From positions 2,059 to 66,058 of the forward strand of contig DUVQ01000098.1 in the NCBI GenBank assembly GCA_012840965.1: 64,000 nt of DNA. The letters are read 5' to 3'. Shown here in pieces: positions 11,301 through 64,000 of this stretch. A program made the position numbers and the translations under genes. The notes below the pieces were generated by a model. It was not told where the DNA came from. It did no database searches and saw nothing but the letters and a program-made list of their open reading frames with translations. Origin of the DNA: Oligoflexales bacterium. GTDB lineage: Bacteria > Myxococcota_A > UBA9042 > DTJE01. Within the stretch, counting starts at the first letter, position 1. Every line of letters starts with the position of its first letter.

Positions 11301-11362
11301 AAACTTGGGTCTTCCCTCACTTACCTGTAGAATATAACGAGCTGTTTGAGGTTGAAGCCAAA

Positions 11363-15046: not shown

Positions 15047-15063
15047 AAATGGGGGGTGGCGAT

Positions 15064-15528
15064 ATGAAAAAGTATCTGAAAAAGACTTCAATTCTTAGTG
15101 CTTTTGTCTTCTTGTTCACCTTTTTTGCCTTAAGTGTCGCAAAGGCGCAAACTTCTGAAGCCGAGCTGAAAATCACGGTGATTCATGCCAAGTCTGGAGA
15201 GCCTTACTTAAGCCCAGAGCTAAGGCCACTGTGGAGAACTATTCGCAAAACCTTTGGAGACCAGTTTTCGAGTTATCGGCAGATCACCTCTAAAGCTGGG
15301 GTGGTCCAAGAGGGTAAGCAAGTCACCGTTGACCTTCCAGATGGCACCACTTTTGAGGCTATGTACAATGGCGTCACAAAAAAGGCCGGACTTTTAAGGG
15401 TGCATTTGGCCTTTGGTGAGTTTAGGACCAAGGTGCGAATTCATAGTGGTGGAACCTTTTTTCAAGCCGGTCGCAAGTACGACAAGGGCACGTTAATCAT
15501 CGCCGTCAGTGCTACTTTAAAGGACTGA
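15064..15528 (+). CDS. secreted hypothetical protein
   Basis: Signal peptide MKKYLKKTSILSAFVFLFTFFALSVAKA. RBS GGGGGGTGG upstream of the ATG at 15064. Confidence 0.5.
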   Translation: MKKYLKKTSILSAFVFLFTFFALSVAKAQTSEAELKITVIHAKSGEPYLSPELRPLWRTIRKTFGDQFSSYRQITSKAGVVQEGKQVTVDLPDGTTFEAMYNGVTKKAGLLRVHLAFGEFRTKVRIHSGGTFFQAGRKYDKGTLIIAVSATLKD

Positions 15529-20073: not shown

Positions 20074-21167
20074 TCAATTGGATTGGGATTTTGGGTCAGA
20101 TAAATATCTCTTTAACAAGAAGGCGCAAAAGTAAGGAAAGGTGTAAATATCATTGCTGTAGCCAATATTTCGACCAGCAAATCTATAATGAATGTCTGGG
20201 TATCTGTCACTATCGATCAAAGTTCTCATCGATTTGGAGGTTCCTCTTTGTGCCTTCACCTCAATGGGGATGAGCGATTTTGCGGTTCTAACAAAGAAAT
20301 CCTGCTCAAGCGATGAGTCGCCACGCTTATAGTAATAAAGCTTGTACCCGCCTTTGGCTAAAGCTTCTGAAACGATATTTTCGTACAGTGCGCCTTTGTA
20401 AACACCCAAGTTTTGGTTGGCCCTCAAATCGTCTTGAGCCTCTTCATCAATTATGGCTACAAGCATCCCAGTATCCGCAAAGTAGATCTTGTATTTCGAA
20501 TCGTCGTGGTTTCCACCAAGCGGCAATTCAGGAAAGTTTAAGCAATAGCAAAGATTTACAATCCCAGCTTCATCCAACCACTCTATGCAACCACGATAAA
20601 AAGTTTACTAAAAACCGACATTTCCACTTCATTAAAGGGTGTCAGACTCAGCATATGTTCAAGCATGTCATCAACAAAGGAGTCGTTGTAGCCCTTTGCC
20701 CAAAGAAATTCCTCAAAGTCCATAGAGTACATTTCATAGTCTGTTTTATATCCAACGCTGTTGCTTTCAATTTTCCGATAGTTGATGCCCAGCATTGAAC
20801 CACTGCAGATTATGTCAAACCTACCATCGATTTTGAAAAACTTGAGTGCCGTTGCTATATCTGGAAACTCCTGCAGTTCGTCAAAGATTATTACTGTCTT
20901 ACCAGCGATGAACTGTTTTGATGGGTCGATTCTGGACAGGTTTTTGACGATGTCAGCAGTACCATATCCATCGGATGTAATCAGTTTGTACTTTGGCTCT
21001 TCAACAAAGTTTATATAGATTACGTTTTCGTAATTCGTATTAGCGAACCTTTTGATCGATTCAGTCTTTCCAACCTAGCGGGGACCTTTAACTATCAAAG
21101 GCTTTCTGTCTGGATTCGCCTTCCAATTAGTCAAAAAGACGTCAATTTTCCTTTTTAAATAAAGCAT
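20074..21167 (-). pseudogene. disrupted AAA-family ATPase (AAA + DUF4143-type) gene
   Basis: Minus-strand translation gives MLYLKRKIDVFLTNWKANPDRKPLIVKGPR, then TAG (21075-21077) exactly where the Walker A should read GPRQVGKT (next residues are VGKTE). It continues in frame to ...FSKLFIVVA*, then needs a frameshift near 20580 to reach the C-terminal DUF4143-like part (20074-20577). Confidence 0.7.
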
Positions 21168-31045: not shown

Positions 31046-31720
31046 GTGGCTGAGAGTCAGGCAATTTTATTAGACAGGGTGCCTTATCGCGACAGGGACT
31101 TGATTCTGACCTTGCTGACCAAGGATTTCGGAGTAATTCACGCTATTGCCAGGGGCGCCAGAGGATCAACAAGGCGTTTTGCCGCAGCCCTTGATTTGTT
31201 CGTGGTCTCTACAGTTTCCTGGACGCAAGGTAAGTCTTCCTTGGTGACTCTGACCCAAGCCTCAGTCATAAAGCAGTTTCCAGGTATATTTGAATCTCTG
31301 CACAGGTTGGAAGTTGGTCAAATGGCCACGGTGCTGGTCAGAGACCTAACTTTTGAAGCGCCAGCTGGAGAGGCTATGTTTTTACATCTGTTGCAGACAT
31401 ATACAGCATTAGAAATTGCCGACGATAGTGATGCCCTTAATCACTTACTGCTCTTGGCGGTAAATCTGCTGGATGAGATAGGCCACTTTGGGCGCAATTG
31501 CCCAAGGTGTGGGGCACAACTAGAGCCTCCTGGACTGCTTTTAATGGCTGATGGGACTGTTTTGTGTCGCACCTGTAGTTCATTTGCGGTTGGTGTCCCT
31601 GCAGACCAACTGTTTACCGACGATAAATCAAGTTTTGACCCGTCACACACCGCAAATTTGATAGCCACTTTGATGTCGGGGACTCTTGGAAGACCCTATC
31701 AACTACGAGGCCTTAGCTAA
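31046..31720 (+). CDS. recO: DNA repair protein RecO
   Basis: GTG-start product MAESQAILLDRVPYRDRDLILTLLTKDFGVIHAIARGAR... parallels the E. coli RecO N-terminus. C-terminal zinc-finger-like CPRCG...CRTC. Confidence 0.75.
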   Translation: MAESQAILLDRVPYRDRDLILTLLTKDFGVIHAIARGARGSTRRFAAALDLFVVSTVSWTQGKSSLVTLTQASVIKQFPGIFESLHRLEVGQMATVLVRDLTFEAPAGEAMFLHLLQTYTALEIADDSDALNHLLLLAVNLLDEIGHFGRNCPRCGAQLEPPGLLLMADGTVLCRTCSSFAVGVPADQLFTDDKSSFDPSHTANLIATLMSGTLGRPYQLRGLS

Positions 31721-33214
31721 TCTGCGGACCCAAATAATCAGGGTTGCAAACAAAAACAACACGAAGGGGCTAGCCATAGTGGGCCCGCTATTACAGCCAG
31801 CAGATTTTTTGGCTTTGACACAATCCTCTTCATCTGTCTGACCGTCGCAGTCGTTGTCAATGCCGTCGTCACAGATTTCAGGTTCTGGAGTCCCAGGTTT
31901 TGCCTCACAAATCACAGATGAGCCGTCATCAGAACACCTGGTTTTTCCAAAGGCCCTACAGGCACCTTCGCCTATTGAGCATTCAACTCCAACTTCGAAG
32001 CCTTCATCGACTTGGCCATCACAGTCATTGTCTATACCGTCACAGATCTCTTCAGAAGGTTCAATTACTTGGGCTAGGCAAATCTGACCAAGCTCCTTGT
32101 CACATGCGAAAACCCCGATTTGAGCGCATGCCCCAAGCCCTTCCACGCATGCTTCGCCAACGTTAAATCCCTCGTCAGTTTCACCGTCACAGTCATTATC
32201 GATACCATCACAGATCTCTTCAGAATCTTTGGCGTCAGGCCCGTCAGGCATTGTTGAGCACGTAGCGCCAGTTCCATCCACCTTACACGTTACAACGCCT
32301 TTTCCGCAGTTACCTAGCGAAACGCAGCCGGCACCAAGGGCGAGCCCCTCAAAGGTGTGGTTATCGTCGACAATGCCGTTACAGTCGTTATCGATCCCAT
32401 CACAGGTGACCTCAACCTCTTCGTAGCCTTCAGGATAAGGACAAATCCAACCGGCAGCCCCTTGGCAAGTTGGGACAGTGCCGGCGCAGATCCCCTTGTC
32501 AAGGCATGAGATGGTTGGTTCAACATCTTCATCGGTCAGCCCATTGCAATTGTCGTCAATACCGTTGCAATACTCCGGCATGCCTGGCCCAATTTTGGGG
32601 TTGTAATCGTCGCAATCGCCTTCGTCTTCCGCCCAACCATCGTTGTCATTGTCGCAGTAATTATTGGCCTCACCTGGAGTGCCAAAATTCCTGTCTTCTC
32701 CGTAAGTCTTGCGAGCAAGGCACCAACCCTTGGGAATTCCATCGATGTATGGCTCAAGCGAGATTGACTTTCCCACTTCCACTGAAATCAAATCCGGCCC
32801 ATAGGAAACTAAATCAACAACAGTGCCATCCAGCTTTAGCTGAATCTCATCAGATTCGCGGCCCAGCAAGATGTCGTCTTCATACACATAATCAAGCTTA
32901 ATACCGCCATTTTGCTTGAAATCGTCCAGCTGTCCCAGGACGACTATGCCACCTGGCTCCAGTATCAGTTCTTTTCTGGCGCTGATGGGGTGAAACCCAC
33001 CAGATGCAGTTGTCAACACCATGCCCTGCAGGTTTACAGGTTCTTCGTTAAAGTTCGAAAGCTCAATCCACTGGCCGGCTTCGGGTGATATCCCATCTGG
33101 CAGGACCATGAATTCAGTAATAACAACACGTGGCCAGGGGCTCGGGTCAGGCGACTTAGCCCACCCCAAAAGAGGCAATAAAAGGACTGCGATGGTAAAA
33201 ATTAACCGCGTCAT
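31703..33214 (-). CDS. secreted protein: lamin-tail domain + MopE-type CDGIDNDCDG repeats + MYXO-CTERM-like tail
   Basis: Signal peptide. LTD ...ITEFMVLPDG...GQWIELSNF.... At least four copies of C(D)DGIDNDC(D/N)G...DE. C-terminus ...GCNSGPTMASPFVLFLFATLIIWVRRLAKAS. Confidence 0.7.
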   Translation of the reverse strand: MTRLIFTIAVLLLPLLGWAKSPDPSPWPRVVITEFMVLPDGISPEAGQWIELSNFNEEPVNLQGMVLTTASGGFHPISARKELILEPGGIVVLGQLDDFKQNGGIKLDYVYEDDILLGRESDEIQLKLDGTVVDLVSYGPDLISVEVGKSISLEPYIDGIPKGWCLARKTYGEDRNFGTPGEANNYCDNDNDGWAEDEGDCDDYNPKIGPGMPEYCNGIDDNCNGLTDEDVEPTISCLDKGICAGTVPTCQGAAGWICPYPEGYEEVEVTCDGIDNDCNGIVDDNHTFEGLALGAGCVSLGNCGKGVVTCKVDGTGATCSTMPDGPDAKDSEEICDGIDNDCDGETDEGFNVGEACVEGLGACAQIGVFACDKELGQICLAQVIEPSEEICDGIDNDCDGQVDEGFEVGVECSIGEGACRAFGKTRCSDDGSSVICEAKPGTPEPEICDDGIDNDCDGQTDEEDCVKAKKSAGCNSGPTMASPFVLFLFATLIIWVRRLAKAS

Positions 33215-36475: not shown

Positions 36476-36716
36476 GTATCGCCTCCATTTTGGGTGCTCG
36501 CTTTGGGGACGGACACCCAGGAAGGGCCAAAACCTAGCATCGGTCAAGTGAAATGTCAATAGGTAAAGTCGTATAGTGAACGCAACCAAACGTATGACTG
36601 GCAAGGAATTTTTATTGCAAGTGCAAAATATGGGATAAAAGTACTTGAAACTCAACAATGGTTTCAATTAGAATTCCAGCGGCCTTTTGGCAGATCACTC
36701 CAGAGGAGATTCAAAA

Positions 36717-38429
36717 ATGCGTCTAAATGGTTTGTTAATCGCTTGCTTGTTTTTGGCAGGCTCGTTTGCCGCATGCGGCGGTGTCGACGTTGGAAATGCT
36801 TGTCTTGGCAACAACGACTGTGTTCCCGGGGAAGTATGTCGAGACTTGCAATGCACTGAGGTCAAGTGTTTGGGTGCTGGCGATTGTAATAATGCCAACG
36901 ATGAAATCTGCGTCCCAGGTGCCCTAGTAGGCAAGGACCCAGAGTTCAGATTCTGCACAGCCGCCCAGTGTAAGACAGATGGCTCTCTCAATTGTCCAGA
37001 AGGCTCAACTTGCAAGAACGGCTGGTGCGAGAGGGACCCGGGGACTGACATTGACGCAGTCGAGCCGGACAACGGTGACCGTCCAGATGATGGGGATACT
37101 GACCCGGGAGAAGAGCCTGACGTACCTCCAGTGGCCGAGGGTGGCGACTGTAAGTCCTGTGCAGGTGACGGCGATTGCAACGAAGGGTTCAAGTGCCTGC
37201 CTCTGGGTTCTGACGGCAAATACTGCCTGCGTCCTTGTGAAGATCACAAGGATTGTTTGTCCGGCTACCAGTGCTATCAGGCCTCAAGCGTTCTCAAGGC
37301 TTGCGTTCCAAACACTTACAACTGTGTAGCATGCGCCTTTGACGCGCCATGTGGCGAAGGCATGTGTTGCGACTTCACCAGTGGTGAGTGCAAGGAATGC
37401 CGTCAGGAGTGTGATCCATGCACCTATGACTACGACTGCGCTGGCAACATGCGCTGCTTCAAGAAAGCCGGTAATCCAACAGGAGCCTGTGTTGAGGAGT
37501 GTGAGAAGGACAATTGTTCTGACCCCGCCAATTTCACATGCCAACCCAACCACCTAGGTGTTAGGGTTTGCCAACCAAACGATGACAGTTGTGGCGGTTG
37601 CCCAGCTGGCACCTTCCCGTTGCCCGATGGAACTGGTTGCGTTGAGTGTCTAAACACCAGCCACTGCACAGGGGGCGCTTCTTGCGATTTAACAACTAAC
37701 ACATGTGTTGTCGGCGCGTGTGATGATAGGACTCCACACACTTGCAGCGATGGTGAATGTCATCAGTGCTGTGAGGATGCCCACTGTGCCGGCATTGGAA
37801 CTGGTGTGTGTAAGCCAACCTTCGAGTGTGAAGGGGCTGAGCTATGCGGCGGTACCTGTGCGCACCCGTATCCTATTTGTGCAATCGTTGACGGGACTGA
37901 AATGTGCGTCCAGTGCAAAACAGACGCTGACTGCCATAAGGTCGACGCGACATGCTATTGTACTCGTGAGCCCCTGTATGCGTGCAACTTCCCCGACCAA
38001 TCGATGTGTATGACCGAGGGTGGGGCTTGCATGCAAACCTGCAAAACCGACAATGACTGTCCGCCAAGCAGCGATGGTGGGGAGCTGTACTGCGATACTG
38101 TTGGTGAAATTTGCTATGATTCCAGTGGAAAATGTGATGGTATGTATTCTTGCTGCCCTGCGGGTGAGGTTTGCTTCGACCTTATGAGCCTTCTAATGGG
38201 TGGTGGCATGGGTGGTATGCCTGGCATGCCTGAAGAGATGGGTGTGTTATTTGGCCACTGTTCCTGTAATAAGGGGACCTGCCTGGGTGGTGGTACTTGT
38301 ACCCCCACTGCTATGGCATGTTTGATGCCAATGATTGGTGACATCATTTGCCCCGGTGGCTCTTTGGCTCCGAACGTGCCCCAAAATATCTGCTTTGACA
38401 TAATGGGCCTTTTGGGCGGCATTATCTAA
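36717..38429 (+). CDS. Cys-rich lipoprotein, paralog A (570 aa, about 80 Cys)
   Basis: ATG at 36717 is preceded by GGAGAT. Lipoprotein signal MRLNGLLIACLFLAGSFAAC. Dense ordered Cys pattern. C-terminal Met/Gly-rich tail. Confidence 0.75.
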   Translation: MRLNGLLIACLFLAGSFAACGGVDVGNACLGNNDCVPGEVCRDLQCTEVKCLGAGDCNNANDEICVPGALVGKDPEFRFCTAAQCKTDGSLNCPEGSTCKNGWCERDPGTDIDAVEPDNGDRPDDGDTDPGEEPDVPPVAEGGDCKSCAGDGDCNEGFKCLPLGSDGKYCLRPCEDHKDCLSGYQCYQASSVLKACVPNTYNCVACAFDAPCGEGMCCDFTSGECKECRQECDPCTYDYDCAGNMRCFKKAGNPTGACVEECEKDNCSDPANFTCQPNHLGVRVCQPNDDSCGGCPAGTFPLPDGTGCVECLNTSHCTGGASCDLTTNTCVVGACDDRTPHTCSDGECHQCCEDAHCAGIGTGVCKPTFECEGAELCGGTCAHPYPICAIVDGTEMCVQCKTDADCHKVDATCYCTREPLYACNFPDQSMCMTEGGACMQTCKTDNDCPPSSDGGELYCDTVGEICYDSSGKCDGMYSCCPAGEVCFDLMSLLMGGGMGGMPGMPEEMGVLFGHCSCNKGTCLGGGTCTPTAMACLMPMIGDIICPGGSLAPNVPQNICFDIMGLLGGII

Positions 38430-38661
38430 TACCTGACTCCCTCCTTTCATAAGACATCGCATAATTTCATTGAATGGGTAATTCTTGATGAGCTCGGTGC
38501 CAAGGTCTATTTGGCAGTGAGGGCCTTTTAGACAATCAACTGGATGCTGCCAAGCTTGATCTTTAAGATAAGGAACAAGTAGTTGAAAGATAAATGTGTT
38601 TTTAGGTAGAATTTACAATTCCAGTGGCCCTTTGGCAGTCTACTCCAAAGGAGATTCAAAA

Positions 38662-39789
38662 ATGCGTCGACGTGGCTTGTTAATCGTTTGCCTGTTCATG
38701 GCGGGCTCATTTGCAGCGTGCGGTGTTGACAAGAAAAACCAAGAAGTTCCCGTTGACACGGTTGAAACTGGCGATGGTTTCAGCTGTGATCCTGGGAAGG
38801 AGCCGGGGGAAGATTTGGAAGAAGAGCCCGGGGAAGCGCCTGGAGAGGATCCGGGACAAGAGCCTGAACAAGACCCGGGACAAGAGGCCAGCGAGCCGGC
38901 AAAGGTGCTGGAACGTGGTGACTGCAAATCATGTACAGGCGATGATGACTGCAATGAAGGCTTTAAGTGCCTATCTTTGGCCTCTGAAGACAAATACTGC
39001 CTGCGTCCTTGTGAAGAGCACAAGGATTGTTTGCCTGGCTACCAGTGCTTTCAGGCCTCAAGCGTTCTCAAGGCTTGTGTTCCAAACACTTACAACTGCG
39101 TACCATGCGCCTTTGATGCGCCATGTGACGAAGGCATGTGTTGCGACTTTGGCTCCGGCCAGTGTTGGGAATGTCGCCAGCAGTGTGATCGATGCATCTA
39201 TGACAGCAACTGTGCCGGCGACATGCGGTGCTTTAAAAAGGCTGGTAGTCCGGTTGGTGTTTGCGTTGAAGAATGCGAGAAGCAGGAATGTTCTGACACC
39301 ACCAATTTTACGTGCAGCCCCAGTTTCAACAATATTCAGGTGTGCCAGCCAAACGACGTCTATTGTGGCGGTTGCCCAGATGGTACCTTTCCGTTGCCTG
39401 ATGGAACTGGCTGCGTTGAGTGTCTTGACAGCAGCCATTGTGATGACGGTATTTGTGATTTGATTACTTATACTTGTGACTATTCCGAGTGTCCTTCCCA
39501 CCTACATATGTGCGATGACGGTCAATGTCACACGTGTTGTGAAGACGCTCATTGCGTGTGTGAGGGTGGTGGTACTGGCATTTGTAGGTCGAATTTCGAA
39601 TGTGAATGCTGCTCCACATGCGATGATAGTGACTGTAGAGACCCGTATCCTGTGTGCGCTAAGGTTGATGGGGTTGAGATGTGTGTTCAGTGCAAAGAGG
39701 ACGCTGACTGCCATCGCATCAATGAAGCCTGCATTTGTACCCCTGTGTACGCATGTGAGTTTTCCGATCATACGGCATGCACAAAATAG
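38662..39789 (+). CDS. Cys-rich lipoprotein, paralog B (375 aa)
   Basis: ATG at 38662 has the same leader and RBS as paralog A. Signal MRRRGLLIVCLFMAGSFAAC, acidic PGE/PGQ repeat, and a core about 330 aa long that is colinear with A. Confidence 0.75.
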   Translation: MRRRGLLIVCLFMAGSFAACGVDKKNQEVPVDTVETGDGFSCDPGKEPGEDLEEEPGEAPGEDPGQEPEQDPGQEASEPAKVLERGDCKSCTGDDDCNEGFKCLSLASEDKYCLRPCEEHKDCLPGYQCFQASSVLKACVPNTYNCVPCAFDAPCDEGMCCDFGSGQCWECRQQCDRCIYDSNCAGDMRCFKKAGSPVGVCVEECEKQECSDTTNFTCSPSFNNIQVCQPNDVYCGGCPDGTFPLPDGTGCVECLDSSHCDDGICDLITYTCDYSECPSHLHMCDDGQCHTCCEDAHCVCEGGGTGICRSNFECECCSTCDDSDCRDPYPVCAKVDGVEMCVQCKEDADCHRINEACICTPVYACEFSDHTACTK

Positions 39790-44146: not shown

Positions 44147-45352
44147 ATGCGGGTCTTGCGATATTTGGCTGTACTTTCGCTAGTTTTCGCTATTATCGCG
44201 ATGATTGGTTGTGACGATTCTGCCCATCGAGCCCATGTTTTGGGGGGAGTGCCGCTGCCTTCTGATGATGAGCCGGATATCGTGTCAAAGCCTGATGAGG
44301 GCGGCGATACTGATGAGGGTTTTGATGTCGATTCATTGTGCGTGCCGGAGTGTGGGGACAGAGTCTGTGGCCCTGATCCCGTTTGCGGCAAGTCGTGTGG
44401 CACCTGTGATGCTTCCACAACTTGCAATTCTCAAGGCCAGTGTGAGTGTGTGAGAGACTGTACCGGTCGCGTTTGTGGTCCGGACCCTGTTTGTGGCGAG
44501 CCGTGTGGGGCTTGTGATGAAAACTGGGTCTGTGTTCTTAGTGGCAAGTGTATAGCCCCAACAGCCGACTGCAGCAACGGGTGGTGTTTGATTCCGTCAG
44601 GCACCTTTAAGATGGGTTCTTTAGGAGATGATCCTTACCGTGAACTTGATGAGGGGCCTGTTCATTTGGTCACGATTTCCCGCTCTTTTTACATGGCGCA
44701 GACGGAAGTCACTCAGGGCCAGTGGAAGTCCTTGATAGGCAACAATCCTTCTGAACATAGTGCCTGTGGGGATAACTGCCCTCTTGAGAACGTTAATTGG
44801 TATGAAGCCGTTCATTATGCAAATGCGCTTTCTGAGAGGGAAGGTTTTGAAACCTGTTACACGTTGAATGGTTGCAGTGGTACTGTCGGTTCTGGGGAAA
44901 GTAAGAACAATCTCTATCAATGTACGGTCACTTTTAAGGGACTTGGTTGTGCAGGTTATCGTTTACCAACCGAGGCCGAGTGGGAATATGCAGCCCGTGC
45001 TGGTACTTCTGGGCCTAGGTATGGCGAAATTGATGCCACAACTTGGTATTGGAACAACAGTTCAAACACTAGTCATCCGGTGGGTGGAAAGGCGGCAAAT
45101 TCCTGGGGCTTATATGATGTGCTGGGCAATGTATTTGAGTGGGTTTACGACTTTTACAGCGAGGACTACTACAGCACTTGTTCATCCAACTGCACAGATC
45201 CAACCGGACCTGCGACAGGCTTTAACCGGGTAAATCGTAGTGGCGGTTGGGGCAGCGACGAAAGCCGTACACGCGTGGTTTTTCGCAACAACTACTCGCC
45301 TGACGAACGCCGAGTCTATTTGGGTTTTCGTTTGGTGAGGTCCGCGCCCTAG
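44147..45352 (+). CDS. lipoprotein with two Cys-rich CxxCxxRxCGxDxxCGxxCGxC modules and a C-terminal FGE-sulfatase (SUMF1-like) domain
   Basis: Lipobox AMIGC. Modules CVPECGDRVCGPDPVCGKSCGTCD... and CVRDCTGRVCGPDPVCGEPCGACD.... FGE motifs ...HLVTISRSFYMAQTEVTQGQW..., YRLPTEAEWEYAARAG, ...GNVFEWVYD.... Confidence 0.75.
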   Translation: MRVLRYLAVLSLVFAIIAMIGCDDSAHRAHVLGGVPLPSDDEPDIVSKPDEGGDTDEGFDVDSLCVPECGDRVCGPDPVCGKSCGTCDASTTCNSQGQCECVRDCTGRVCGPDPVCGEPCGACDENWVCVLSGKCIAPTADCSNGWCLIPSGTFKMGSLGDDPYRELDEGPVHLVTISRSFYMAQTEVTQGQWKSLIGNNPSEHSACGDNCPLENVNWYEAVHYANALSEREGFETCYTLNGCSGTVGSGESKNNLYQCTVTFKGLGCAGYRLPTEAEWEYAARAGTSGPRYGEIDATTWYWNNSSNTSHPVGGKAANSWGLYDVLGNVFEWVYDFYSEDYYSTCSSNCTDPTGPATGFNRVNRSGGWGSDESRTRVVFRNNYSPDERRVYLGFRLVRSAP

Positions 45353-54521: not shown

Positions 54522-54680
54522 TTTATCAAAGCCGAAAATTAGGGATTAATAATTGCAACCAATAGTTGCACACTAAGTCATTTGGCGGTATCAGAGTCTG
54601 CGGACTTTGATGTTTATCAAATCTGTGTAGTTTAATTGGTGCGTACAAGCTTGCGGAGGGATACCTTGAAATCAACAGCA

Positions 54681-57600
54681 ATGCAGGAACTAGTTCAAGG
54701 GGCAGCTGCCTTTTCAGATTTTCGCCTCAAGGCCTTGGCTGATTCGCTGGGCGAGATAATTCCAGGGATTAAGCAGGTTTCAGCAAGCTTCGTTTATCTG
54801 CTCGATCTGGACGCCCCCTTGAATGAAGCCATAAGGGCTAGGATTTTAGAGCTGCTTGACGCAACTGATGAGCCGCTGCTGCCAGGGTGCTTTTTTGTGA
54901 CTCCTAGGCTTGGAACCATTTCTCCTTGGTCGTCAAAAGCCATTAACATCCTTCACAATTGCGAGTTGACGGCGGTGCGACGAGTTGAGCGTGGCATAGC
55001 GTTTTGTGTAAAGGACAGTGCTGGAAAATCGCTGGGGCCTGCCGATCTGGCCAAGGCGCTTGACCTGCTTTATGACAAGATGACTGAGGGGGTGTATGAA
55101 AACGTTGACAATTTCTTTTACTCGCAGCCACCGGCCCCAGGCGTCGTCTTTGATCTAAAAAATGGTGGAATCGACGTCTTACATAAGGCAAATGCGAAAA
55201 TGGGATTGGCCTTATCAGATGATGAAATTGACTACCTGTACCAAGCCTACTCAAAGGCTGGTCGAAATCCCACCGACAGCGAACTTGTGATGTTTGGCCA
55301 GGTAAATTCGGAGCACTGCCGCCATAAAATCTTTAACGCCGACTGGGTAATCGATGGCGAGCCCCAACAGCATACCCTGTTTCAGATGATCAAGCATACC
55401 CACGCATGCAGTCCAAAAGGAACGCTTGTCGCGTACAAGGACAACTCAAGCGTGGCGCAGGGGCATTTAGTGCAAGCCTTTGAAATCAATGACGAAGGTT
55501 CCTACAGCTTTCAAGAAGACCAAATCGACATGATTATGAAGGTCGAGACTCATAATCATCCAACGGCGATTTCCCCATTTGCTGGTGCGGCCACTGGTGT
55601 TGGAGGGGAGATTCGCGACGAATCTGCTACTGGGACTGGTTCAAAGAGCAAGGCTGGGTTGGCTGGATTTATGGTTTCCAACTTACGCATCCCAGGTCAT
55701 ATCCAGCCTTGGGAGGTTGAGCATTCCAAGCACCCAGCACGACTTGCGACTCCTTTGTCGATCATGCTTGATGGGCCGTTGGGTGGGGCTTCATTTGGAA
55801 ACGAGTTTGGTCGTCCTCAACTTGCTGGATTCTTTAGGACCTTTGAAGATCTGGTAAACGGTCGTCATCGTGGATACCACAAGCCAATAATGCTTGCTGG
55901 TGGTATGGGAAACATCAGGCGTAGTCAGGTTTACAAAAAGAAGCTTAAACCAGGCGATCTGATTGTTCAGCTAGGTGGTCCTTCCATGCGCATCGGTCTT
56001 GGCGGTGGTGCGGCGTCGTCTATGGACACCGGTGTAAATGAGGCCGCCTTGGATTTTGACTCGGTCCAACGCGGAAATGCTGAGGTTCAGCGTCGCTGCC
56101 AGGAGGTTATCGATGCATGCGTCACCATGGGGGATGATAATCCCATCATAAGCATCCACGATGTTGGAGCTGGCGGTCTTTCTAACGCCTGTCCAGAGCT
56201 GGTTGAAGACACTGGCGCCATTTTCCAGCTTAGGGATATCCCAAACGAGGAACCTTCGATGAATCCCATGGAGATTTGGTGCTGCGAGGCTCAGGAGCGC
56301 TACGTGTTGGCCATAGATCCAAATGATCGAGCGCTATTTGAAGGGCTGTGTAAAAGGGAGCGCTGCCCAGTGGCATTCATAGGTGTGGCAACTGGTGACG
56401 AGCGCCTTGTGGTTGAAGATAGCTATTTTAATGACCGCCCAATCGACATGGATATCAGGGTGTTGCTTGGAAAGCCCCCGAAAATGCAGCGAAGCATCCA
56501 ACGGGCCGAGGTCAAACCTCCACCCCTCGATTTGGAACATGTCGCCATCGAAGACGCGATTTACCGGGTTTTAAATCTGCCCGCGGTCGCCGATAAGTCG
56601 TTTTTAATAACTATTACAGACCGTTCCGTTACAGGTCTGGTTCATAGGGATCAGCTGGTTGGTCCATATCAAATCCCAGTTGCAGATTGTGCTGTGACTG
56701 CCACCAGTTACCTTTCATACAAGGGTGAAGCGATGGCAATGGGCGAGCGGTCTCCTATCGCGCTGATAAGCGGCCCTGCATCTGGTCGTATTGCGATTGG
56801 CGAGGCGCTGACCAATCTGGCCGGCGCAAATATTGGCGAAATTGGAAACGTTAAGCTGTCGGCAAACTGGATGTGTGCCTGTGGTGAGGACAACGAGGAC
56901 GCCCAGCTTTTTGACACCGTTAAAGCCGTTGGGATGGAGCTATGCCCAGCTCTCGGCGTGTCCATTCCAGTAGGTAAAGACTCGCTTTCAATGCGCAGTG
57001 TCTGGCAGGATGAATCAGGTCAAAATCGTCGCCAGACCTCGCCTTTAAGCTTGGTTGTCAGTTCATTTGCACCGGTCCAAGACATTCGCAAAACGGTGAC
57101 CCCGGATCTAAAACCGGTCGATTCAAGCTTGATCTTGATTGACCTTGGAGCTGGCAAAAATCGCCTAGGTGGCAGTGCTTTAGCACAAGTCTACAACCAA
57201 GTCGGCGATGAGGCCCCAGACCTGGATGATCCTGTGAAGTTCAAGGCTTTTTGGTCCGCTATCCAGGAATTAGTGGATAAAGGGCTACTTTTGGCCATCC
57301 ACGACCGCTCTGACGGTGGTTTGTTCATCACTCTTTCAGAAATGGCGATGGCTGGTGGTCGTGGATTTGAAGTCACCTTGCCGGGTAATTCCACGACAGC
57401 CAAAGCCCAGCTCTTTAGTGAAGAATTGGGTGTTGTGATACAGGTTGCCGACCGTGAACCAGTGTTGGACCTGCTAAACAAGCATGGCCTTTCAGACATC
57501 TGTTTCACGTTGGGTACTGTCAAAACAGATAACCACCTGATTTTCAAATCAAATGAAGGCTCCACCCTAGTCTCGACAACCATTACTGACGTGCGTCGCC

Positions 57601-58529
57601 AGTGGTCCGCTTTGTCATACAAGATTCGCTCAATTCGCGAAAATCCGGCGTGTGCCACGCAAGAATATGAAAAGGCGATATCGCCTGACGCAAAAGGCAG
57701 GCAGTACAAGCTAACTTATGACTTGCTGCCAAAACCAGTCAACTTGAATCTGACTAAGCCAAAGGTGGCGATTTTGCGTGAGCAGGGCGTAAATGGCCAT
57801 GTCGAAATGGCCGCCGCCTACACATCTGTCGGCTTTGATGCGGTAGATGTTCACATGACCGATCTTTTAGCAGGTCGAATAAACCTTGACGGTTTTACTG
57901 GCTTGACCGTCTGCGGCGGTTTTAGTTATGGCGATGTGTTGGGCGCAGGTACCGGATGGGCCAGGTCAATCCTGTTTAATCCAACCATGAAAGCCATGTT
58001 TACCCGGTTTTTTGCAAGGCAAGACACCTTCACACTTGGGGTTTGTAATGGGTGCCAGACTATCTCTCAGCTAAAAAGCATCATTGACGGCGCAGCCCAC
58101 TGGCCACGATTCATGGCCAACGTCAGTGGTCAGTTTGAGGCCAGGTACTCAACTGTCAGGATAATGCCATCGCCATCAGTCCTTTTGCGTGGGATGGAAG
58201 GGGCCCGTATCCCAGTCCCATCGGCCCATGGTGAAGGGCTTGTGACATTTGCAAGCGACGAGGACAAAAAGGCCGCCTTAGCCGCCGTGTGCTACGTTGA
58301 CAATGATGGGAATTGCACCCAGCAATATCCTGAAAATCCCAATGGTTCTGTTGGCGGCATGACTGGTTTTACGACAACTGATGGGCGCGTGCTAATCATG
58401 ATGCCGCACCCCGAGCGTGCCTTCAGGTCCGTCCAGCTAGCTTACAGACCTGCTGACATGTTTGCTGGCGAAGCCGGTCCTTGGCTACGCATGTTCCAAA
58501 ATGCATATGCTTTTGCCACTGGGCGATAA
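54681..58529 (+). CDS. purL: phosphoribosylformylglycinamidine synthase (single-chain, large PurL)
   Basis: [19 protein letters not shown]... parallels E. coli PurL [20 protein letters not shown]. C-terminal glutaminase domain ...[16 protein letters not shown].... Confidence 0.9.
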
Positions 58530-58586
58530 ATGACTACAATGCAGACCTTAGTGGTGTCCTTTTGCCGTTTTACAAGGGGGGAGTTG

Positions 58587-61103
58587 ATGGGGCTATCTAA
58601 TCAAAAACATTGGTCAATTTTGGCGGGCTTGTCCTTGGTTTTCGCTGTTGCTTGTAATGAAAGCCCAGAGCCAACCCCTTTGGATGACGCTATCCAAGAC
58701 GCATCAGATGACACCCCCACAGAAGACGTTTTTGGTGACGACGATTCTGGCGACGAATCTGGATTTTCACAAAAGGCAACTCCTTGGCGTGCTGGTCCGG
58801 AGGCGCCTTCAAGTGACCTGTTCGAGGATTATGGATTAACCGAATTTAACGGTTGGGTCGACGAGGTCTCGTGGAAGTTTGAAAACGGAGAACCCGTGCT
58901 CAACCACCACGAGCTTGCCTATTATGCAGTTGCTAATGGGCGCACCTTTTCCTTTTTGGGTACAACTTACCCCCTAACAGTGCTTCACGAACCTTATGGG
59001 CCTGATTACAACCGACCGAAACTAAAGACTTTCCCAGATATCCATTTCAGCGCAACTATTGGTGGTAAAGCCCAAAAGGTGGATGTCTCACGCATAGGTC
59101 GATTCAGCAAAAGCTCCATTGTTGGCATTACAAACGAGGGCCAGAGCCTTAAAGTTTCTTCGCTATTTGCGGCCCCAGTCAGTGATGATGCAGACATCAG
59201 AACCTCGATTATTGCCATTTTCCGGCTCACCAACACCGGGACAGACCCAATCAAATCAGTTGGTTTTTCAATGAAGCCGATGTCTGGTTTTGAAGAATCA
59301 GCTGAAGGTGTGGCTATTTTTAAACAATTGGATCGCCGCATAACAACCGTTTGTCCTGATGCGACATGGGACGACGACAAAGCCGCGTTTGTTGTGCAAG
59401 ACGTCGACCTAGAAGCTGGTGCCAGCCGAGATATCCAGTTTTGGTTGTTTTTCTCCGATGGAAAGGTGGAGGCCAACAGGGTAGAGCACCTGACTGCCCT
59501 AGCTAAAGCATCAGACGTCAAAGCAATTTTCGGCGCGACCAACTCGTGGTGGGAAGACTGGTTTTCACAGGGCCTAGTTGTGGAATTGGACGACCCTATG
59601 GTCACCGACCTGATCGAGTCCTTCCAGTACACCCTTAAAGCGCAAATTTCATACAACGGCGCAATGAGCCCGCTTTCTCACTATGGCGAGTATTGGACTC
59701 GTGACATCAGCTCTCCCGTAAGGATGCTGTCAATCATGTCCAGGCCAGACGAGGCGCGGTCCATACTTGATTATCACCACGTCGCAGCCTGTGCAAATGA
59801 GGGCTTCTTTAATGCCTCCAAAGTTGATTGGCCTACCGACGTTCCCTGTGCTGTAACCGATTGGTCCGCGCTGCCCGTCCTTACAAACAAAACAGCTGCC
59901 GAGGCGCCATCTTACATTGTTCACATGTACCACCGGTTATTTGACACTACCGGCGATTCGTCCTTGATGCGTGAAAGAGAAGAGATGCTTCGCTATGGGC
60001 TTCAAAAGCAAAACATGGACGAGACATTCTTGCTGCCATTTTCTGACGACGAGACCTTTAGGGCAGCCATGGCCATGAACTTAAACCTTGATGGAGGGGC
60101 ATCAATGATGTTTGCCGATGTGGCATGGTCTCTTCACTCCACGCTGCTCTACGTGGCTGCTGCCGATGGCCTTGCCGCAGCCCTTGGTTACGAGCAGACC
60201 GACGACATCGTTAAGGTCAGAAATTCTGTGGCCGCAACTTTGGATCAGTACTACTGGCAAGAAGAAGAGGGCTTTTGGGCAGCCATGGTTTACAAAGACG
60301 ATCTGAGGCCTTTAATGGCTCCATACGAAGATGTGAATCTTACCGCCGCTTGGATGAACCTCGAAGATGCCTTGGGATGGGACAGGATAAGCAGTGATAT
60401 TAATGCCTTAGTTGAAAGGGCCTGGGTTGACGAGCTTGGAGTTATTCAAACCAACGCAGGGGCTTATAGTGAGCTTTTTGGTTTTGACCTCTCGATGGGC
60501 ATAGCAACTGGAATGACGCCAGGTTTTTCTTTGTATGCGCTGTCTCGTCATCGCCCCGATCTGGCACAAAAAAGCTTTAATGCTTTTAGGGAAATTGCTA
60601 CCGCCTCTGGGAATGTTACCGAGGATTATGCGACAAAGGGCTTCGTCCCACTGATGCCTTTGTACGATGATTCAGGTGAGTTTGGTGAGGTTTGGGCACG
60701 TTTCCGTCCGTGGGAGGGGGCCCAGGATGCAGAGGCCATTATTTTCTATCTGACAGGGCTGTGGCCAGACGCTGCAAACCATCGTGTCGCCCTTCAACCG
60801 CATCTGCCAAATAACCTTCCACGTGCGACATATAGGGGGCTTATGGCGGGCGGTTGCAAGATCGACTTGAGCTTAGAGGAGCAAAGTGAGACGGTGCGAG
60901 ACTACGCGGTACATTTCACAGGCGACAAGTGTAATGACCTCAATGTGACTTTGAAAACCGCCACTTGGGAATGTGGTGAGACCGATTTCTGCCAAGTGAC
61001 AGTAACGGCCAGTGGGTGCGTCATTGACCAGGCCGCAGCTGCTATTGGAACAGCCAGTTTTAAAGCCCAAGACAAGATGATTTGCACATTCAGGGCCGAG
61101 TAA
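58587..61103 (+). CDS. large lipoprotein, unknown function (possibly alpha/alpha-toroid glycosidase-like; weak)
   Basis: The internal start MGLSNQKHWSILAGLSLVFAVAC has a GGGGGGAG RBS and a lipobox. The track start at 58530 overlaps the purL stop. Confidence 0.5.
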   Translation: MGLSNQKHWSILAGLSLVFAVACNESPEPTPLDDAIQDASDDTPTEDVFGDDDSGDESGFSQKATPWRAGPEAPSSDLFEDYGLTEFNGWVDEVSWKFENGEPVLNHHELAYYAVANGRTFSFLGTTYPLTVLHEPYGPDYNRPKLKTFPDIHFSATIGGKAQKVDVSRIGRFSKSSIVGITNEGQSLKVSSLFAAPVSDDADIRTSIIAIFRLTNTGTDPIKSVGFSMKPMSGFEESAEGVAIFKQLDRRITTVCPDATWDDDKAAFVVQDVDLEAGASRDIQFWLFFSDGKVEANRVEHLTALAKASDVKAIFGATNSWWEDWFSQGLVVELDDPMVTDLIESFQYTLKAQISYNGAMSPLSHYGEYWTRDISSPVRMLSIMSRPDEARSILDYHHVAACANEGFFNASKVDWPTDVPCAVTDWSALPVLTNKTAAEAPSYIVHMYHRLFDTTGDSSLMREREEMLRYGLQKQNMDETFLLPFSDDETFRAAMAMNLNLDGGASMMFADVAWSLHSTLLYVAAADGLAAALGYEQTDDIVKVRNSVAATLDQYYWQEEEGFWAAMVYKDDLRPLMAPYEDVNLTAAWMNLEDALGWDRISSDINALVERAWVDELGVIQTNAGAYSELFGFDLSMGIATGMTPGFSLYALSRHRPDLAQKSFNAFREIATASGNVTEDYATKGFVPLMPLYDDSGEFGEVWARFRPWEGAQDAEAIIFYLTGLWPDAANHRVALQPHLPNNLPRATYRGLMAGGCKIDLSLEEQSETVRDYAVHFTGDKCNDLNVTLKTATWECGETDFCQVTVTASGCVIDQAAAAIGTASFKAQDKMICTFRAE

Positions 61104-61205: not shown

Positions 61206-63545
61206 ATGGACTGGGCTGTTCGACTTCCTGAGATTGGAGACAAGATTGGCGGTAGGTTTCGCATAGTTGCGATTAAAGGCTCCGGGCCGGTAGGCATGGT
61301 GTTCAAGGCCTTTGATTTGGCTTTGGACTTGCCTGTGGCAGTGAAAGTTTTTAATCCAGAGTTGTTTAGTTCCGCATTTAGGGAGCTGAATCTGCTGCGG
61401 CTGTACAGGGCCAGGACCCTACAAGACAGCAATCTGGTCAGAATTTTTGAGGTCATGGAAGAAGACGGCCTTCATTTTGTGACCAGCCAGTTAGTTGAGG
61501 GGATGTCCCTTAGGGCAGTGCTCGATCTGAGGGACGAAAGTGGTGAGCGATTTCCAGCGCCCAAGATTCGGTCGCTTGCAGAGTGGCTGATAGACGCTGT
61601 TGTCCCTATCCATAAACAGGGGATTATTCACGGGAATCTGAAGCCGGAGAACCTGTTCGTTTTACCGGACAAACTAATGGTTTCGGACCCTCACTACTTG
61701 GTCCTTAACATGCTTGTTGAGGGCCAGGAGATTCCAGCTACAGACTTTTATCGTGGTCCAGAGCAACTTACTGAACCGCGAATGGAATTGAAGCAGACTG
61801 ATGTTTACGCCGTCGCTTTAATCATAGGTGAGATTCTTGCCATTAATCCAGTAAGGGCAGGCGTTCCTCTTTCTGAACAAATTCCAAGGCTTACCAAGCA
61901 TCTTGATGATGTCTTTGTCAAGGCTACCCAAGACGACCCATTTGATAGGTACGATTCATTACAAAGCTTTGCCAAGGATTTAAGCAGTGCCTTTGCAAAG
62001 GTAGATGTTGACGGACTGTGGGTCCGCAGGATGCACGAGACAGGCTCGTTCAAGGCGTTAAGGATCGTCCAAGCTCCAGATGGTCAGCCAATTCCTCTGG
62101 TAGTGGAACCAACTGCTGTCACAGCCCCCGAGCCTGCCCCTGCTCCCGAGCCCGAGCCTGCCCCAGAGCCCGCCCCAGAGCCAGAGCCTGCCCCTGCCCC
62201 GGAGCCTGCACCTGTCTCTGCCCCCGCCCCTGATCCTGTCCCTGTCCCTGACCCCGAGCCAGAGCCCAACCCTGCTGACGAACTAGAGGAAGAGGGCATC
62301 GAATTCGATACAAATCGCATTGATGACTCGGACTTAGAGGGAATCGAGGTTGTCTTTAGCGCACCTGCAATGGATGATGAGGAAGATCTTGCTGTTGAGG
62401 AGACAGTAGAGCCCGTGGCACCGGAGCCCACCAAAGCCGGAAGGGGTAGAAAAGGGAAAAAGGGTAGACAGGCCGCTAGGGAGGCCGCTAAAGAGGCGGC
62501 AAGGGCCGCTCAAAAGGAGGAAGAACAGCCCCCACCTGCACCTGAACCACCTCCGGTTGTAGTTGCAGATGCCCCACCAGATGTGCCAGATCTGCTGTTG
62601 ACTACCCCACAGCGCAGACCCACTGGCCCCTTACCAAAACCACCTACCAGGCCTATAGATACCGGCACTGTAACTGTAATCAAAAAAGACGAGCCAAAAA
62701 GCGGAATTATGCGTTTTCTTTGGCTTATAGCGTTGGTGGTAGTGTTGGGTGGTGCTGCAACATTTTGGTACATGGGTAAATCTGATCCAGTGGAGGAGCC
62801 AGTCATTGCTGCTGTTGATGACCCAGCTCCTGCCCCGGCTCCAGCTCCTGAGCCTGCTGCAGCTCCGGCCCCAGCTCCGGCCCCAGCCCCTGAGCCCGCT
62901 GCAGCCCCGGCCCCGGCTCCGGCCCCAGTCCCTGAGCCTGCTCCTGCCCCCGAGCCTGTCCCTGCCCCTGAGCCCGCTGCTGCCCCCGAGCCTGAGCCTG
63001 TCCCTGCCCCAGAACCAGCCCCCGCTCCCGAGCCAGCCCCAGCCCCCCAAGGCGCCCTTTTAGCAGACAACCTAGTCTGCCCCGCGGGCATGGCGCTAAT
63101 CGTGCTGGATGAAACAGCCACTGTTGACTCCAAGGCCAAACCAAGCTCAGTAGGCTTTTGTATCGACACCCACGAATTTCCTGGAGCTGGTCAAAAACCA
63201 AGGGGCGGCGCGTCTAGGGCCACCGCAACCAGCTTGTGCAAAAAGGCTGGGAAGGCACTGTGCAGTAGCGCCCAATGGTTAAAAGCCTGCGAAACCGGCA
63301 CACCAGAGGCATCGAAGTGTAACGTGACAGGCGGCGTACAACCCGCAGGTTCCTACGCTGAATGCGTAACATCCAACGGTGTGTACGACATGATCGGAAA
63401 TGTTGGGGAATGGACCTCTGACAACTTCATCAGAGGCGGTGACACCAACGTTGGTGGGATTGGATCTTGTTCCTACAAAACTAAGCGTTTTAGCCCGAAA
63501 TCCACAGACGGATTCAGATGTTGTGCCAATCCTACAACTCGCTGA
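61206..63545 (+). CDS. Ser/Thr-kinase-like protein (predicted pseudokinase) with TM, Pro/Ala/Glu repeats and a C-terminal FGE-sulfatase-like domain
   Basis: G-loop IKGSGPVGMVFKA and VAVKV lysine are present, but the catalytic loop reads HGNLKPEN (not HRDLKPEN) and the DFG position reads SDP. A TM segment (LIALVVVLGGAATFWYM) separates two PAPEPEP tracts. C-terminus ...YDMIGNVGEWTSD.... Confidence 0.7.
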   Translation: MDWAVRLPEIGDKIGGRFRIVAIKGSGPVGMVFKAFDLALDLPVAVKVFNPELFSSAFRELNLLRLYRARTLQDSNLVRIFEVMEEDGLHFVTSQLVEGMSLRAVLDLRDESGERFPAPKIRSLAEWLIDAVVPIHKQGIIHGNLKPENLFVLPDKLMVSDPHYLVLNMLVEGQEIPATDFYRGPEQLTEPRMELKQTDVYAVALIIGEILAINPVRAGVPLSEQIPRLTKHLDDVFVKATQDDPFDRYDSLQSFAKDLSSAFAKVDVDGLWVRRMHETGSFKALRIVQAPDGQPIPLVVEPTAVTAPEPAPAPEPEPAPEPAPEPEPAPAPEPAPVSAPAPDPVPVPDPEPEPNPADELEEEGIEFDTNRIDDSDLEGIEVVFSAPAMDDEEDLAVEETVEPVAPEPTKAGRGRKGKKGRQAAREAAKEAARAAQKEEEQPPPAPEPPPVVVADAPPDVPDLLLTTPQRRPTGPLPKPPTRPIDTGTVTVIKKDEPKSGIMRFLWLIALVVVLGGAATFWYMGKSDPVEEPVIAAVDDPAPAPAPAPEPAAAPAPAPAPAPEPAAAPAPAPAPVPEPAPAPEPVPAPEPAAAPEPEPVPAPEPAPAPEPAPAPQGALLADNLVCPAGMALIVLDETATVDSKAKPSSVGFCIDTHEFPGAGQKPRGGASRATATSLCKKAGKALCSSAQWLKACETGTPEASKCNVTGGVQPAGSYAECVTSNGVYDMIGNVGEWTSDNFIRGGDTNVGGIGSCSYKTKRFSPKSTDGFRCCANPTTR

Positions 63546-63585: not shown

Positions 63586-64000
63586 GTGATAGATAGATAC
63601 ACAACTGTGCGCATGCGCAATATCTGGTCCATGAAGAATCGTTGGAATCTTTTTTTGGACGTAGAGCTAGCTTATCTTGAGGCTTTAGAAGAAGACAAGA
63701 TTGCCACACCAGGACAAGCTAAAAAAATTAAGGACTTGGTGACCATAGACCCCGACCGGATCGCAGCCCTTGAACAGACGCTTCGCCACGATGTGATAGC
63801 GTTTTTGACCCATGTGGAAGAGCAGGCAGGTGAGGCGACCAGATTCCTGCATTATGGACTTACCAGTTCCGACGTCCTAGACACGGTATTTGCTCTTCAG
63901 CTTAAACAGGCCACAGCCTACATCTTGGAAGAGATGTCAAACCTGACAGATGCGCTGGATGAACTGGCGCAACGTCACAAAAAAACGCCCATTGCCGGTC
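63586..64000 (+). CDS. purB: adenylosuccinate lyase, 3'-truncated at window edge
   Basis: GTG start preceded by AAGGAG. VIDRYTTVRMRNIWSMKNRWNLFLDVELAYLEA... parallels B. subtilis PurB MIERYSRPEMSAIWSDENRF.... Runs off the window end. Confidence 0.8.
   Translation, partial: MIDRYTTVRMRNIWSMKNRWNLFLDVELAYLEALEEDKIATPGQAKKIKDLVTIDPDRIAALEQTLRHDVIAFLTHVEEQAGEATRFLHYGLTSSDVLDTVFALQLKQATAYILEEMSNLTDALDELAQRHKKTPIAG

Follow-up and report, generated by a model that had tools for sequence, protein, structure and literature searches.

A candidate receptor pseudokinase with an FGE-like ectodomain, encoded directly upstream of purB in an uncultured myxobacterium

Introduction

Contig DUVQ01000098.1 of an uncultured myxobacterium contains a housekeeping chromosomal stretch of 64,000 nt with a GC content of about 50% (this whole stretch is called the window in the following), the genes of which include pgk, tpi, parAB, purC, ribBA and purL. 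At 61206–63545 on its forward strand a protein of 779 aa is encoded, in which a kinase-like domain is followed by a transmembrane (TM) helix and by a domain that resembles the formylglycine-generating enzyme (FGE). The catalytic motifs of the kinase-like domain deviate from those of the Hanks-type kinases, and thus the locus raises the question of what the biological role of such a membrane protein might be. Pseudokinases are operationally defined as lacking at least one of three residues, i.e., the Lys of the VAIK motif, the Asp of the HRD motif and the Asp of the DFG motif (PMC12599244). The original prediction, which had been made from the sequence alone, took the protein for a pseudokinase sensor. 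The analysis of sequence, predicted structure and conservation that is described here points to a ligand-regulated receptor pseudokinase, with an FGE-fold ectodomain that would bind and a kinase-like domain devoid of the catalytic base that would signal non-catalytically; a probability of about 60% was assigned to this reading.

Results

A kinase-like domain without catalytic base and alphaC glutamate

The Pfam profile Pkinase (PF00069) matched aa 25–267 with 65.7 bits (cut-off 31.7, E = 5.6e-18). An AlphaFold2 (AF2) model of the kinase-like domain, which was built on 103 sequences, had a predicted local distance difference test (pLDDT) value of 87.9 and was ordered to about residue 267. The closest structures found with Foldseek were PknA, PknB and PknI of M. 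tuberculosis and Stk1 of S. aureus, with E values of about 5e-18 and template modelling scores (TM-scores) of 0.62–0.75. With an above-threshold profile match and a bilobal kinase fold the domain belongs to the Hanks-type kinase superfamily. Similarity to named kinase families of NCBIfam was only far sub-threshold, and the protein is not a PASTA kinase of the PknB/Stk1 type (NF033483), with 83.8 bits against a cut-off of 450 and no PASTA match.

The catalytic motifs were located with HMMER alignments to CDKL5 and StkP, in which 'iiHGNlkpenl' of the query was placed on 'ivHRDlkpenl' and 'lmvsDPHy' on 'kvtDFGi', and with column statistics, for which the 150 best cluster representatives were aligned to the query and 134 canonical HRD domains were compared with 30 members of the clade to which the query belongs. 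At positions 142–144 the residues H, R and D were each present in 100% of the canonical domains, versus H in 76%, G in 90% and N in 96% of the clade members. The exchange of HRDLKPEN to HGN with an Asn in place of the catalytic Asp, which had been read from the sequence before, is thus confirmed column for column against CDKL5, StkP and the 134 canonical domains, and the Gly loop GSGPVG and the Lys of the VAVK motif (Lys47), listed as kept, are indeed present. The second motif had been given as SDP in place of DFG, and here the register was off by one: D161-P162-H163 aligns with D-F-G, and the Asp is retained and invariant. Position 161 is Asp in 100% of the clade, position 162 is Pro in 90%, and position 163 is occupied by Y, F or W. 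Of the mis-registration that the original prediction had itself named as its refutation, namely a canonical HRD and DFG hidden by a wrong alignment of the loop, only this shift by one position at the DFG site was found, with the Asp present, while HRD to HGN stands.

A further change had been overlooked. In the AF2 model the alphaC helix comprises aa 59–70, and position 66, the site of the canonical alphaC Glu, is Leu, Ile or Val in the clade and Leu66 in the query, so that the Lys-Glu salt bridge is lost; the invariant residues N62, R68 and R70 are candidates for its replacement. The nearby E60 (FRELNLL) was considered as a retained alphaC Glu and was ruled out, because the columns of the 134 canonical domains place their 'RE' at R65-L66. 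In an alignment of 16 clade sequences with 36–62% identity the residues K47, N144, K146, P147, N149, D161, E186 (of the APE motif), D199 (alphaF) and R248 were invariant, and in the HMMER alignment the activation-segment length and the GPE motif were normal.

Taken together, the catalytic base (HRD Asp to Asn144), the HRD Arg (to Gly), the alphaC Glu (to Leu66) and the Phe and Gly of DFG (to Pro and an aromatic residue) have been changed, while the nucleotide- and metal-binding set of Gly loop, Lys47, Lys146, Asn149 and Asp161 has been kept. Of the features of a competent kinase, the beta3 Lys, the catalytic-loop Asn and the DFG Asp are thus present and the alphaC Glu and the HRD Asp are missing; through the absent HRD Asp the domain falls under the operational definition of a pseudokinase. 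As Asp161, Lys47 and Asn149 are kept, ATP/Mg binding is probably retained, and the sequence argues for a kinase-like domain that has lost its catalytic base and its Lys-Glu bridge and probably still binds nucleotide and metal. The former verdict "probably catalytically dead" had been based on two lost motifs; the loss of the base stands and is joined by that of the alphaC Glu, and the loss of DFG has to be given up, since Asp161 is kept.

The altered motifs are traits of a whole clade

The nearest database sequences stem from metagenome-assembled genomes of uncultured Myxococcota. Word-indexed searches yielded only one fragment with 99% identity and two relatives of partial length; all three have HGN, and the one that reaches far enough also has SDPYY. 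These searches gave almost only proteins shorter than about 520 aa, and the full-length relatives came from an exhaustive search of representatives, which retrieved 67 clusters with E < 1e-30. Thirteen clusters (two of them partial) have 47–69% identity to the query, and a second tier consists of proteins of 1000–1600 aa with 36–43% identity. Both tiers have in common an xGN or xAN catalytic loop, DP[YFW] at the place of DFG, one TM helix and an ectodomain with ...GFRCCADP. The clade has a size of about 30 sequence clusters with 36–63% identity, and six full orthologs (L001, L071, L074, L075, L076 and L077) have an identical architecture. Both folded domains are strongly conserved across the clade, and the linkers have freely diverged.

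Among the 49 nearest representatives with a single kinase domain and an FGE domain, the position of the base was occupied by N in 30, by D in 14 and by G, S or A in five cases. The Lys and the DFG Asp were kept in 49 of 49, and not a single RD kinase was among them. With Asn in 30 and RD in none of the 49, the loss of the base is a family trait and not a one-off event, and the fixation of the same substitutions across a diverged clade indicates a selected pseudokinase state and not decay. The protein had been likened to an inactivated version of the kinase-FGE fusions; the likeness is real, and the case was understated, since the base loss spans the family. Some related family members retain HGD or HSD together with DFG. 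In one FGE-fused relative (P0232) HGD occurs together with DPW, which shows that the change to DP-aromatic can occur in evolution separately from the loss of the catalytic Asp.

A scan of metagenomes revealed many HRN-, HGN- or HTN-FGE proteins of about 600 aa; the search pattern (N[LI]KP[EQ]N...) favours Asn, so that these hits show the existence of such proteins and not their frequency. In public databases the relatives carry names like 'hypothetical protein', 'protein kinase, partial' or 'SUMF1/EgtB/PvdO family nonheme iron enzyme [Myxococcales bacterium]'. More distant proteins at two loci (L081 and L083) have an N-terminal Zn-ribbon, PHLN and DVG motifs and only 33% identity to the query. 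In other lineages multi-kinase proteins were found (P0139, P0148, P0184 and P0208) that combine an HGN pseudokinase-like domain and a canonical HRD/DFG domain in one chain, an arrangement like that of JAK.

The ectodomain is predicted to be a binding module

The FGE-sulfatase profile PF03781 matched aa 708–742 with 29.6 bits (cut-off 23.3), covering only 35 of the 255 profile positions. The 110 homologs of the ectodomain that were found are nearly all annotated as FGE-sulfatase, and the AF2 model that was built with their alignment had a pLDDT of 93.7. A Foldseek comparison of this model with the PDB retrieved human FGE, pFGE, bacterial FGEs, CalU17, ToxD, the phage protein Mtd, PorK, PvdO and EgtB, with E values of 5e-6 to 1e-3 and query-normalised TM-scores of 0.5–0.67, and a family profile of the ectodomain matched FGE and pFGE with E values of 1e-20 to 1e-22. 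By the threshold of PF03781 and by its fold the domain is thus a member of the FGE-sulfatase domain family.

All 10 Cys residues of the protein are located in the ectodomain, which fits an oxidising extracytoplasmic location, and all 10 are kept in the ortholog L001. FGE catalysis needs both of its active-site cysteines, and FGE-like proteins without them, e.g., the immunity protein Tsi3, act by binding (bioRxiv 10.1101/2021.05.21.445229). In a profile alignment to human FGE the sole conserved Cys in the segment was the structural C346, and the copper-binding C336 and C341 had no Cys counterpart, with C336 on a non-Cys column and C341 in an insertion. Manual anchoring on the GG motif placed C336 on a Val (window sequence GGDTN-V). 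The two active-site cysteines that define a formylglycine-generating enzyme (SUMF1/FGE) are thus absent, and because of the missing pair the ectodomain is read as a module that binds, rather than as an enzyme. It is probably a trimmed module of 165 aa that is stabilised by disulfides, as judged from its sequence. The periplasmic FGE/SUMF1-like domain of the original prediction was accordingly borne out by Pfam, AF2 and Foldseek as far as the fold is concerned, with the restriction that the domain is trimmed and that the catalytic Cys pair is absent.

The possibility that the C-terminal domain is a functional periplasmic oxidase of the FGE/EgtB/PvdO type, with the kinase-like part only as cytoplasmic anchor or regulator, is nevertheless suggested by the Pfam, Foldseek and profile matches to enzymes of the FGE family and by the name 'nonheme iron enzyme' of a relative. 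The two copper-binding Cys have no counterpart in the domain of 165 aa, the iron site of EgtB and OvoA lies in a DinB domain, which is absent here, and non-catalytic FGE folds are common (PvdO, PorK, Tsi3). Such an enzymatic role is therefore regarded as very improbable.

Protein layout and membrane topology

The features of the gene and of the window are compiled in Table 1. The open reading frame (ORF) is intact, from the ATG at 61206 to the TGA at 63543–63545. A longer version with a TTG start at 61149 would be possible, but the N-terminus of every ortholog lines up with the ATG. The architecture that had been proposed, with a kinase-like domain, a PAPE linker, a TM helix, a second PAPE linker and an FGE-like C-terminus, was confirmed by sequence and model, and the homologs likewise have one TM helix between the kinase and FGE domains. 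Between the first PAPE linker and the basic tract the translation contains an acidic stretch. The charge flanking the helix is +1 before and -3 after it, and the basic residues before and the acidic residues after the helix fit an N-in/C-out topology. The best explanation of the sequence features would be a type-I-like (N-in/C-out) inner-membrane receptor pseudokinase.

The kinase-like domain is directly followed by a tail (GLWVRRMHETGSFKALRIV, aa 270–288), which is kept in the 10 closest sequences of the 16-sequence clade alignment and has a pLDDT of about 40 in the AF2 model. Within the closest subclade its motif EGLWVRRxHETGSF[KR]A shows strong conservation, and the more distant tier lacks it. 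This tail could be a candidate docking or phospho-acceptor segment. In several public assemblies of orthologs (P0001, P0009–P0012, L069 and L071) contigs end, or N-gaps lie, at the repeats that code for PAPE; as these repeats break many assemblies, database entries of the family are often split or partial and easily overlooked.

Table 1. Positions of the features of the kinase-like/TM/FGE-like gene and of further genes in the window.
Feature	Position	Strand	Evidence
Whole gene, kinase-like/TM/FGE-like protein, 779 aa	61206..63545	+	ORF listing, Pfam matches, ortholog N-termini
Hanks-type kinase-like (pseudokinase) domain, predicted cytoplasmic, aa 12–269	61239..62012	+	Pfam PF00069, AF2, Foldseek
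Gly-rich loop GSGPVG, aa 25–30, retained	61278..61295	+	G25 and G27 nearly invariant in clade
Beta3 Lys47 (VAVK), retained, invariant	61344..61346	+	Alignments; K in 49/49 FGE-fused representatives
AlphaC R65-L66, canonical 'RE' position, Glu to Leu	61398..61403	+	Column frequencies
Catalytic loop HGNLKPEN, aa 142–149; HRD to HGN; Lys146 and Asn149 retained	61629..61652	+	HMMER alignments, column counts
D161-P162-H163 at DFG site; Asp kept, Phe to Pro, Gly to aromatic in clade	61686..61694	+	Alignments, column counts
Conserved clade-specific tail GLWVRRMHETGSFKALRIV, aa 270–288, directly after kinase-like domain	62013..62069	+	Ortholog alignment
PAPE low-complexity linker 1, predicted cytoplasmic, aa 307–356	62124..62273	+	DNA tandem repeats 62124–62260
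Lys/Arg-rich basic tract, predicted cytoplasmic, aa 410–440, then Thr/Pro-rich juxtamembrane segment	62433..62525	+	Translation; fits positive-inside rule
Single TM helix IMRFLWLIALVVVLGGAATFWYM, aa 501–523	62706..62774	+	Sole strong hydropathy peak, 2.1
PAPE linker 2, predicted extracytoplasmic, aa 538–614	62817..63047	+	DNA tandem repeats 62819–63046
Compact Cys-rich FGE-fold (C-type-lectin-like) ectodomain, aa 615–779	63048..63542	+	Pfam PF03781 partial match, AF2, Foldseek
purB (adenylosuccinate lyase), 5' part, GTG start 63586	63586..64000	+	Sequence; AAGGAG Shine-Dalgarno
Predicted lipoprotein, 857 aa, directly upstream	58530–61103	+	No Pfam/NCBIfam match
Lipoprotein (lipobox MIGC), two CGPDPVCG...CG.C modules and full-length FGE-sulfatase	44147–45352	+	Pfam, E = 6e-45
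HerA/DUF87-like ATPase, DUF4407-like C-terminal part, 816 aa	39842–42292	+	Pfam survey
Two ORFs with ~14% Cys, one with lipoprotein-like N-terminus	36687–38429, 38596–39789	+	No Pfam/NCBIfam match
MopE-type Cys-module/Lamin-tail-domain (LTD) protein	31703–33214	-	Window survey

Linkage to purB

The gene is followed on the same strand by purB. A gap of 40 nt free of terminator-like sites separates the two genes, from which it was concluded that they are probably co-transcribed. The linkage is not restricted to the window: purB comes next, in the same orientation, at all 10 related loci whose sequence extends beyond the gene, and the pair is present in the window and in L001, L069, L071, L074–L077, L081 and L083. 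Among these, the purB genes of L081 and L083 are only 37–47% identical to the others and the remaining neighbours (pnp, dut, purC) differ; in L081 the gene sits among pnp, dut, purB and purC. The neighbour purB is lacking in tier-2 relatives (L080) and next to the marine HRN/HGN-FGE proteins. Purine genes also occur on the other side in the window, where a large single-chain PurL of 1297 aa is encoded upstream of the gene (54636–58529, forward strand); in L001, L071, L074, L076 and L077 a split purS-purQ-purL is instead found downstream of purB.

Other genes in the window

A phmmer search of the window gave no second Hanks kinase, and the scanned ORFs of the window, as well as the flanks retrieved for relatives, contained no gene for a kinase, a PP2C or an FHA protein. 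The Pfam scan left out the ORFs at 11135–12079, 14000–14587, 15049–15528 and 20074–20577 (range 150–315 aa). The search for an active kinase encoded nearby, which had been proposed as a check, thus revealed none among the scanned ORFs, and a partner kinase is hypothetical, as no gene for it was found.

The earlier statement that further FGE- or Cys-module-containing lipoproteins lie in the window was essentially right, as is evident from the proteins encoded at 44147–45352, at 31703–33214 on the reverse strand, and at 36687–38429 and 38596–39789. The FGE domain of the first of these likewise has no catalytic Cys pair. A custom hidden Markov model of the compact FGE family did not retrieve any further FGE ORF from the window, a false-negative result in view of the Pfam match at 44147–45352. 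In L001, L071, L075 and L076 genes for giant MopE-module proteins precede the ortholog. The lipoprotein encoded directly upstream of the gene was considered as a conserved partner and was rejected, because BLASTP revealed no similarity to the lipoproteins that L001 and L071 have in this place.

Discussion

How might a receptor without catalytic base work? In the proposed mechanism the ectodomain would bind a ligand from the periplasm or the envelope, without catalysis. Binding would alter the oligomerisation or the conformation through the single TM helix, and the ATP-bound, essentially non-phosphotransferring kinase-like domain would pass the signal on non-catalytically. As to the output, the domain might serve an active Hanks kinase as allosteric partner or scaffold, in a dimerisation-dependent manner as in HER3, or the long Thr/Pro-rich juxtamembrane linker might serve as a phospho-acceptor platform.

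Several points weigh against the ligand-regulated receptor pseudokinase. The searches described above found no second Hanks kinase in the window, and no kinase, PP2C or FHA gene among the scanned ORFs and the flanks of relatives; directly around the TM helix the charges (+1 versus -3) give a modest positive-inside signal; and kinases with an Asp-to-Asn exchange can keep low activity, HER3 being an example. The last point leads to the view that the domain is a weakly or atypically active kinase, which would bind ATP/Mg on K47, N149 and D161 and would transfer phosphate either in the absence of a general base or with the hydroxyl placed by Asn144. At the high local concentration within a membrane dimer, a slow trans-phosphorylation of the Thr-rich linker would be sufficient. 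This would be in good agreement with the invariance of Lys146 and of the nucleotide- and metal-binding set, with the normal activation segment and GPE motif, with the relatives that keep HGD or HSD plus DFG, and with the residual activity that HER3 shows to be possible with an HRN motif. Yet base, alphaC Glu, HRD Arg and the Phe and Gly of DFG have been changed jointly and are fixed across the clade, and kinases are routinely inactivated by just this exchange of D to N, so that weak activity is considered unlikely, albeit with appreciable weight. That the gene is a decaying, non-functional kinase gene might be suspected from the lost canonical motifs; however, an intact ORF of 779 codons, the fixation of the same substitutions throughout about 30 clusters with 36–63% identity, two confident AF2 models and the conservation of the folded domains next to linkers that are free to diverge leave virtually no room for this explanation.

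The linkage to purB opens a different view, namely that the protein is a membrane regulator that senses purine nucleotides, the pseudo-active site of which would read ATP, ADP or a purine intermediate. In combination with the signal from the ectodomain, the protein would tune the expression or the activity of the co-transcribed purB and of other pur genes. The adjoining purB in 10 of 10 loci, including L081 and L083 with their diverged purB and different other neighbours, speaks for a functional connection, as do the short gap without terminator-like site, the invariant nucleotide-binding residues and the place of the L081 gene among pnp, dut, purB and purC. On the other hand, the adjacency may merely be an old operon or promoter arrangement, a purB neighbour is missing in tier-2 relatives (L080) and in the marine HRN/HGN-FGE proteins, and neither a DNA-binding nor any other output domain is present. 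To our knowledge there is no precedent for such a regulator, and it is viewed as improbable. A broader and rather speculative proposal, which is quite unlikely, would be that the HGN/DP-aromatic receptors together with the Zn-ribbon sister group form a distinct, undescribed pseudokinase family with an intact nucleotide site, fixed upstream of purB in deeply diverged genomes, and that its members are transmembrane nucleotide-sensing switches, which couple an envelope or periplasmic signal, sensed through the Cys-rich FGE-fold domain, to purine biosynthesis.

The receptor pseudokinase thus is the preferred reading. Pseudokinases make up about one tenth of kinomes, and hence the clade is no surprise in kind. 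Bacterial pseudokinases are almost unexplored experimentally, and the protein is a candidate for a bacterial ligand-regulated, ATP-binding receptor pseudokinase that follows the pattern of HER3, with only the base and the Lys-Glu bridge lost; its conserved place upstream of purB is a concrete lead to its physiology. Should it do no more than scaffold a conventional kinase, it would simply be one more ordinary member of the large kinome of the myxobacteria.

Comparison with known systems

Fusions of kinase and DUF323/FGE-sulfatase domains have been known since 2005–2007, e.g., the cyanobacterial cbSTKII-DUF323 (PMC1262709, PMC2176072), and in the bSTK Atlas of 2025 the FGE-sulfatase architecture is attached to the canonical family 'Proteo1' (bioRxiv 10.1101/2025.01.12.632604). 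The query shares with both the order of kinase, (TM) and FGE-sulfatase. In contrast to them, which are described as canonical, it has neither base nor alphaC Glu, carries the DP-aromatic motif and has a trimmed, Cys-rich FGE domain of 165 aa.

Seven bacterial pseudokinase families are described in the Atlas and in a review of 2025, and the VAIK Lys is lost in some or all of their members (bioRxiv 10.1101/2025.01.12.632604; PMC12599244). ActPs1, ActPs2, ActPs3, GLW and DLHK are characterized by the loss of this Lys in all members and by specific indels or motifs, whereas the query keeps Lys47 and has no large indels. The actinobacterial ActPs2 has its beta3 Lys changed to Arg, a deleted DFG and insertions of 32 aa and about 250 aa, none of which is present in the query. 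CP1 is cytosolic and fused to a COG3899 ATPase, while the query has no ATPase domain and contains a TM helix, and in place of the DYD motif and the beta3 Arg of the DYD family it has DPH and Lys47. MviN/ActPs3 and EssB/YukC are likewise membrane-anchored bacterial pseudokinase domains, which act as scaffolds or are regulated by phosphorylation (PMC12599244); in these, however, the three motifs are degraded, the activation loops are short and ATP is not bound, whereas the query keeps the ATP- and metal-binding residues and a normal activation segment. Judged by sequence against the published descriptions, the clade fits none of the seven families.

As for the ectodomain, pFGE/SUMF2, PvdO, PorK/GldK, Tsi3 and Mtd share with the query an FGE/C-type-lectin-like fold without the copper-binding Cys pair, a non-cytoplasmic location and a binding or structural role, which in the query is a prediction. 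The domain of the query is much smaller, has 10 conserved Cys residues and is fused via the TM helix to a pseudokinase.

The pseudokinase HER3 (ErbB3) has an HRN motif and no alphaC Glu, and keeps the beta3 Lys, the catalytic-loop Asn and the DFG Asp. The query would resemble it in being a single-pass receptor with a ligand-binding domain outside the cell, with the same exchange of Asp to Asn, the same loss of the alphaC Glu and the same retention of Lys, Asn and DFG Asp. It differs from HER3 in that it belongs to an unrelated lineage, with the bacterial PknA and PknB as its nearest structures, that the kinase-like domain precedes the TM helix, an order shared by most bacterial serine/threonine kinases, that the ectodomain has another fold, that DFG is further altered to DP-aromatic and that the partner is hypothetical. 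HER3 represents the class of pseudokinases that bind nucleotide and cation, and it is an allosteric activator of partner kinases (PMC8141879). Thus, HER3 might be seen as the closest functional analogue of the myxobacterial protein, in the sense of an analogy and not of membership in the same family.

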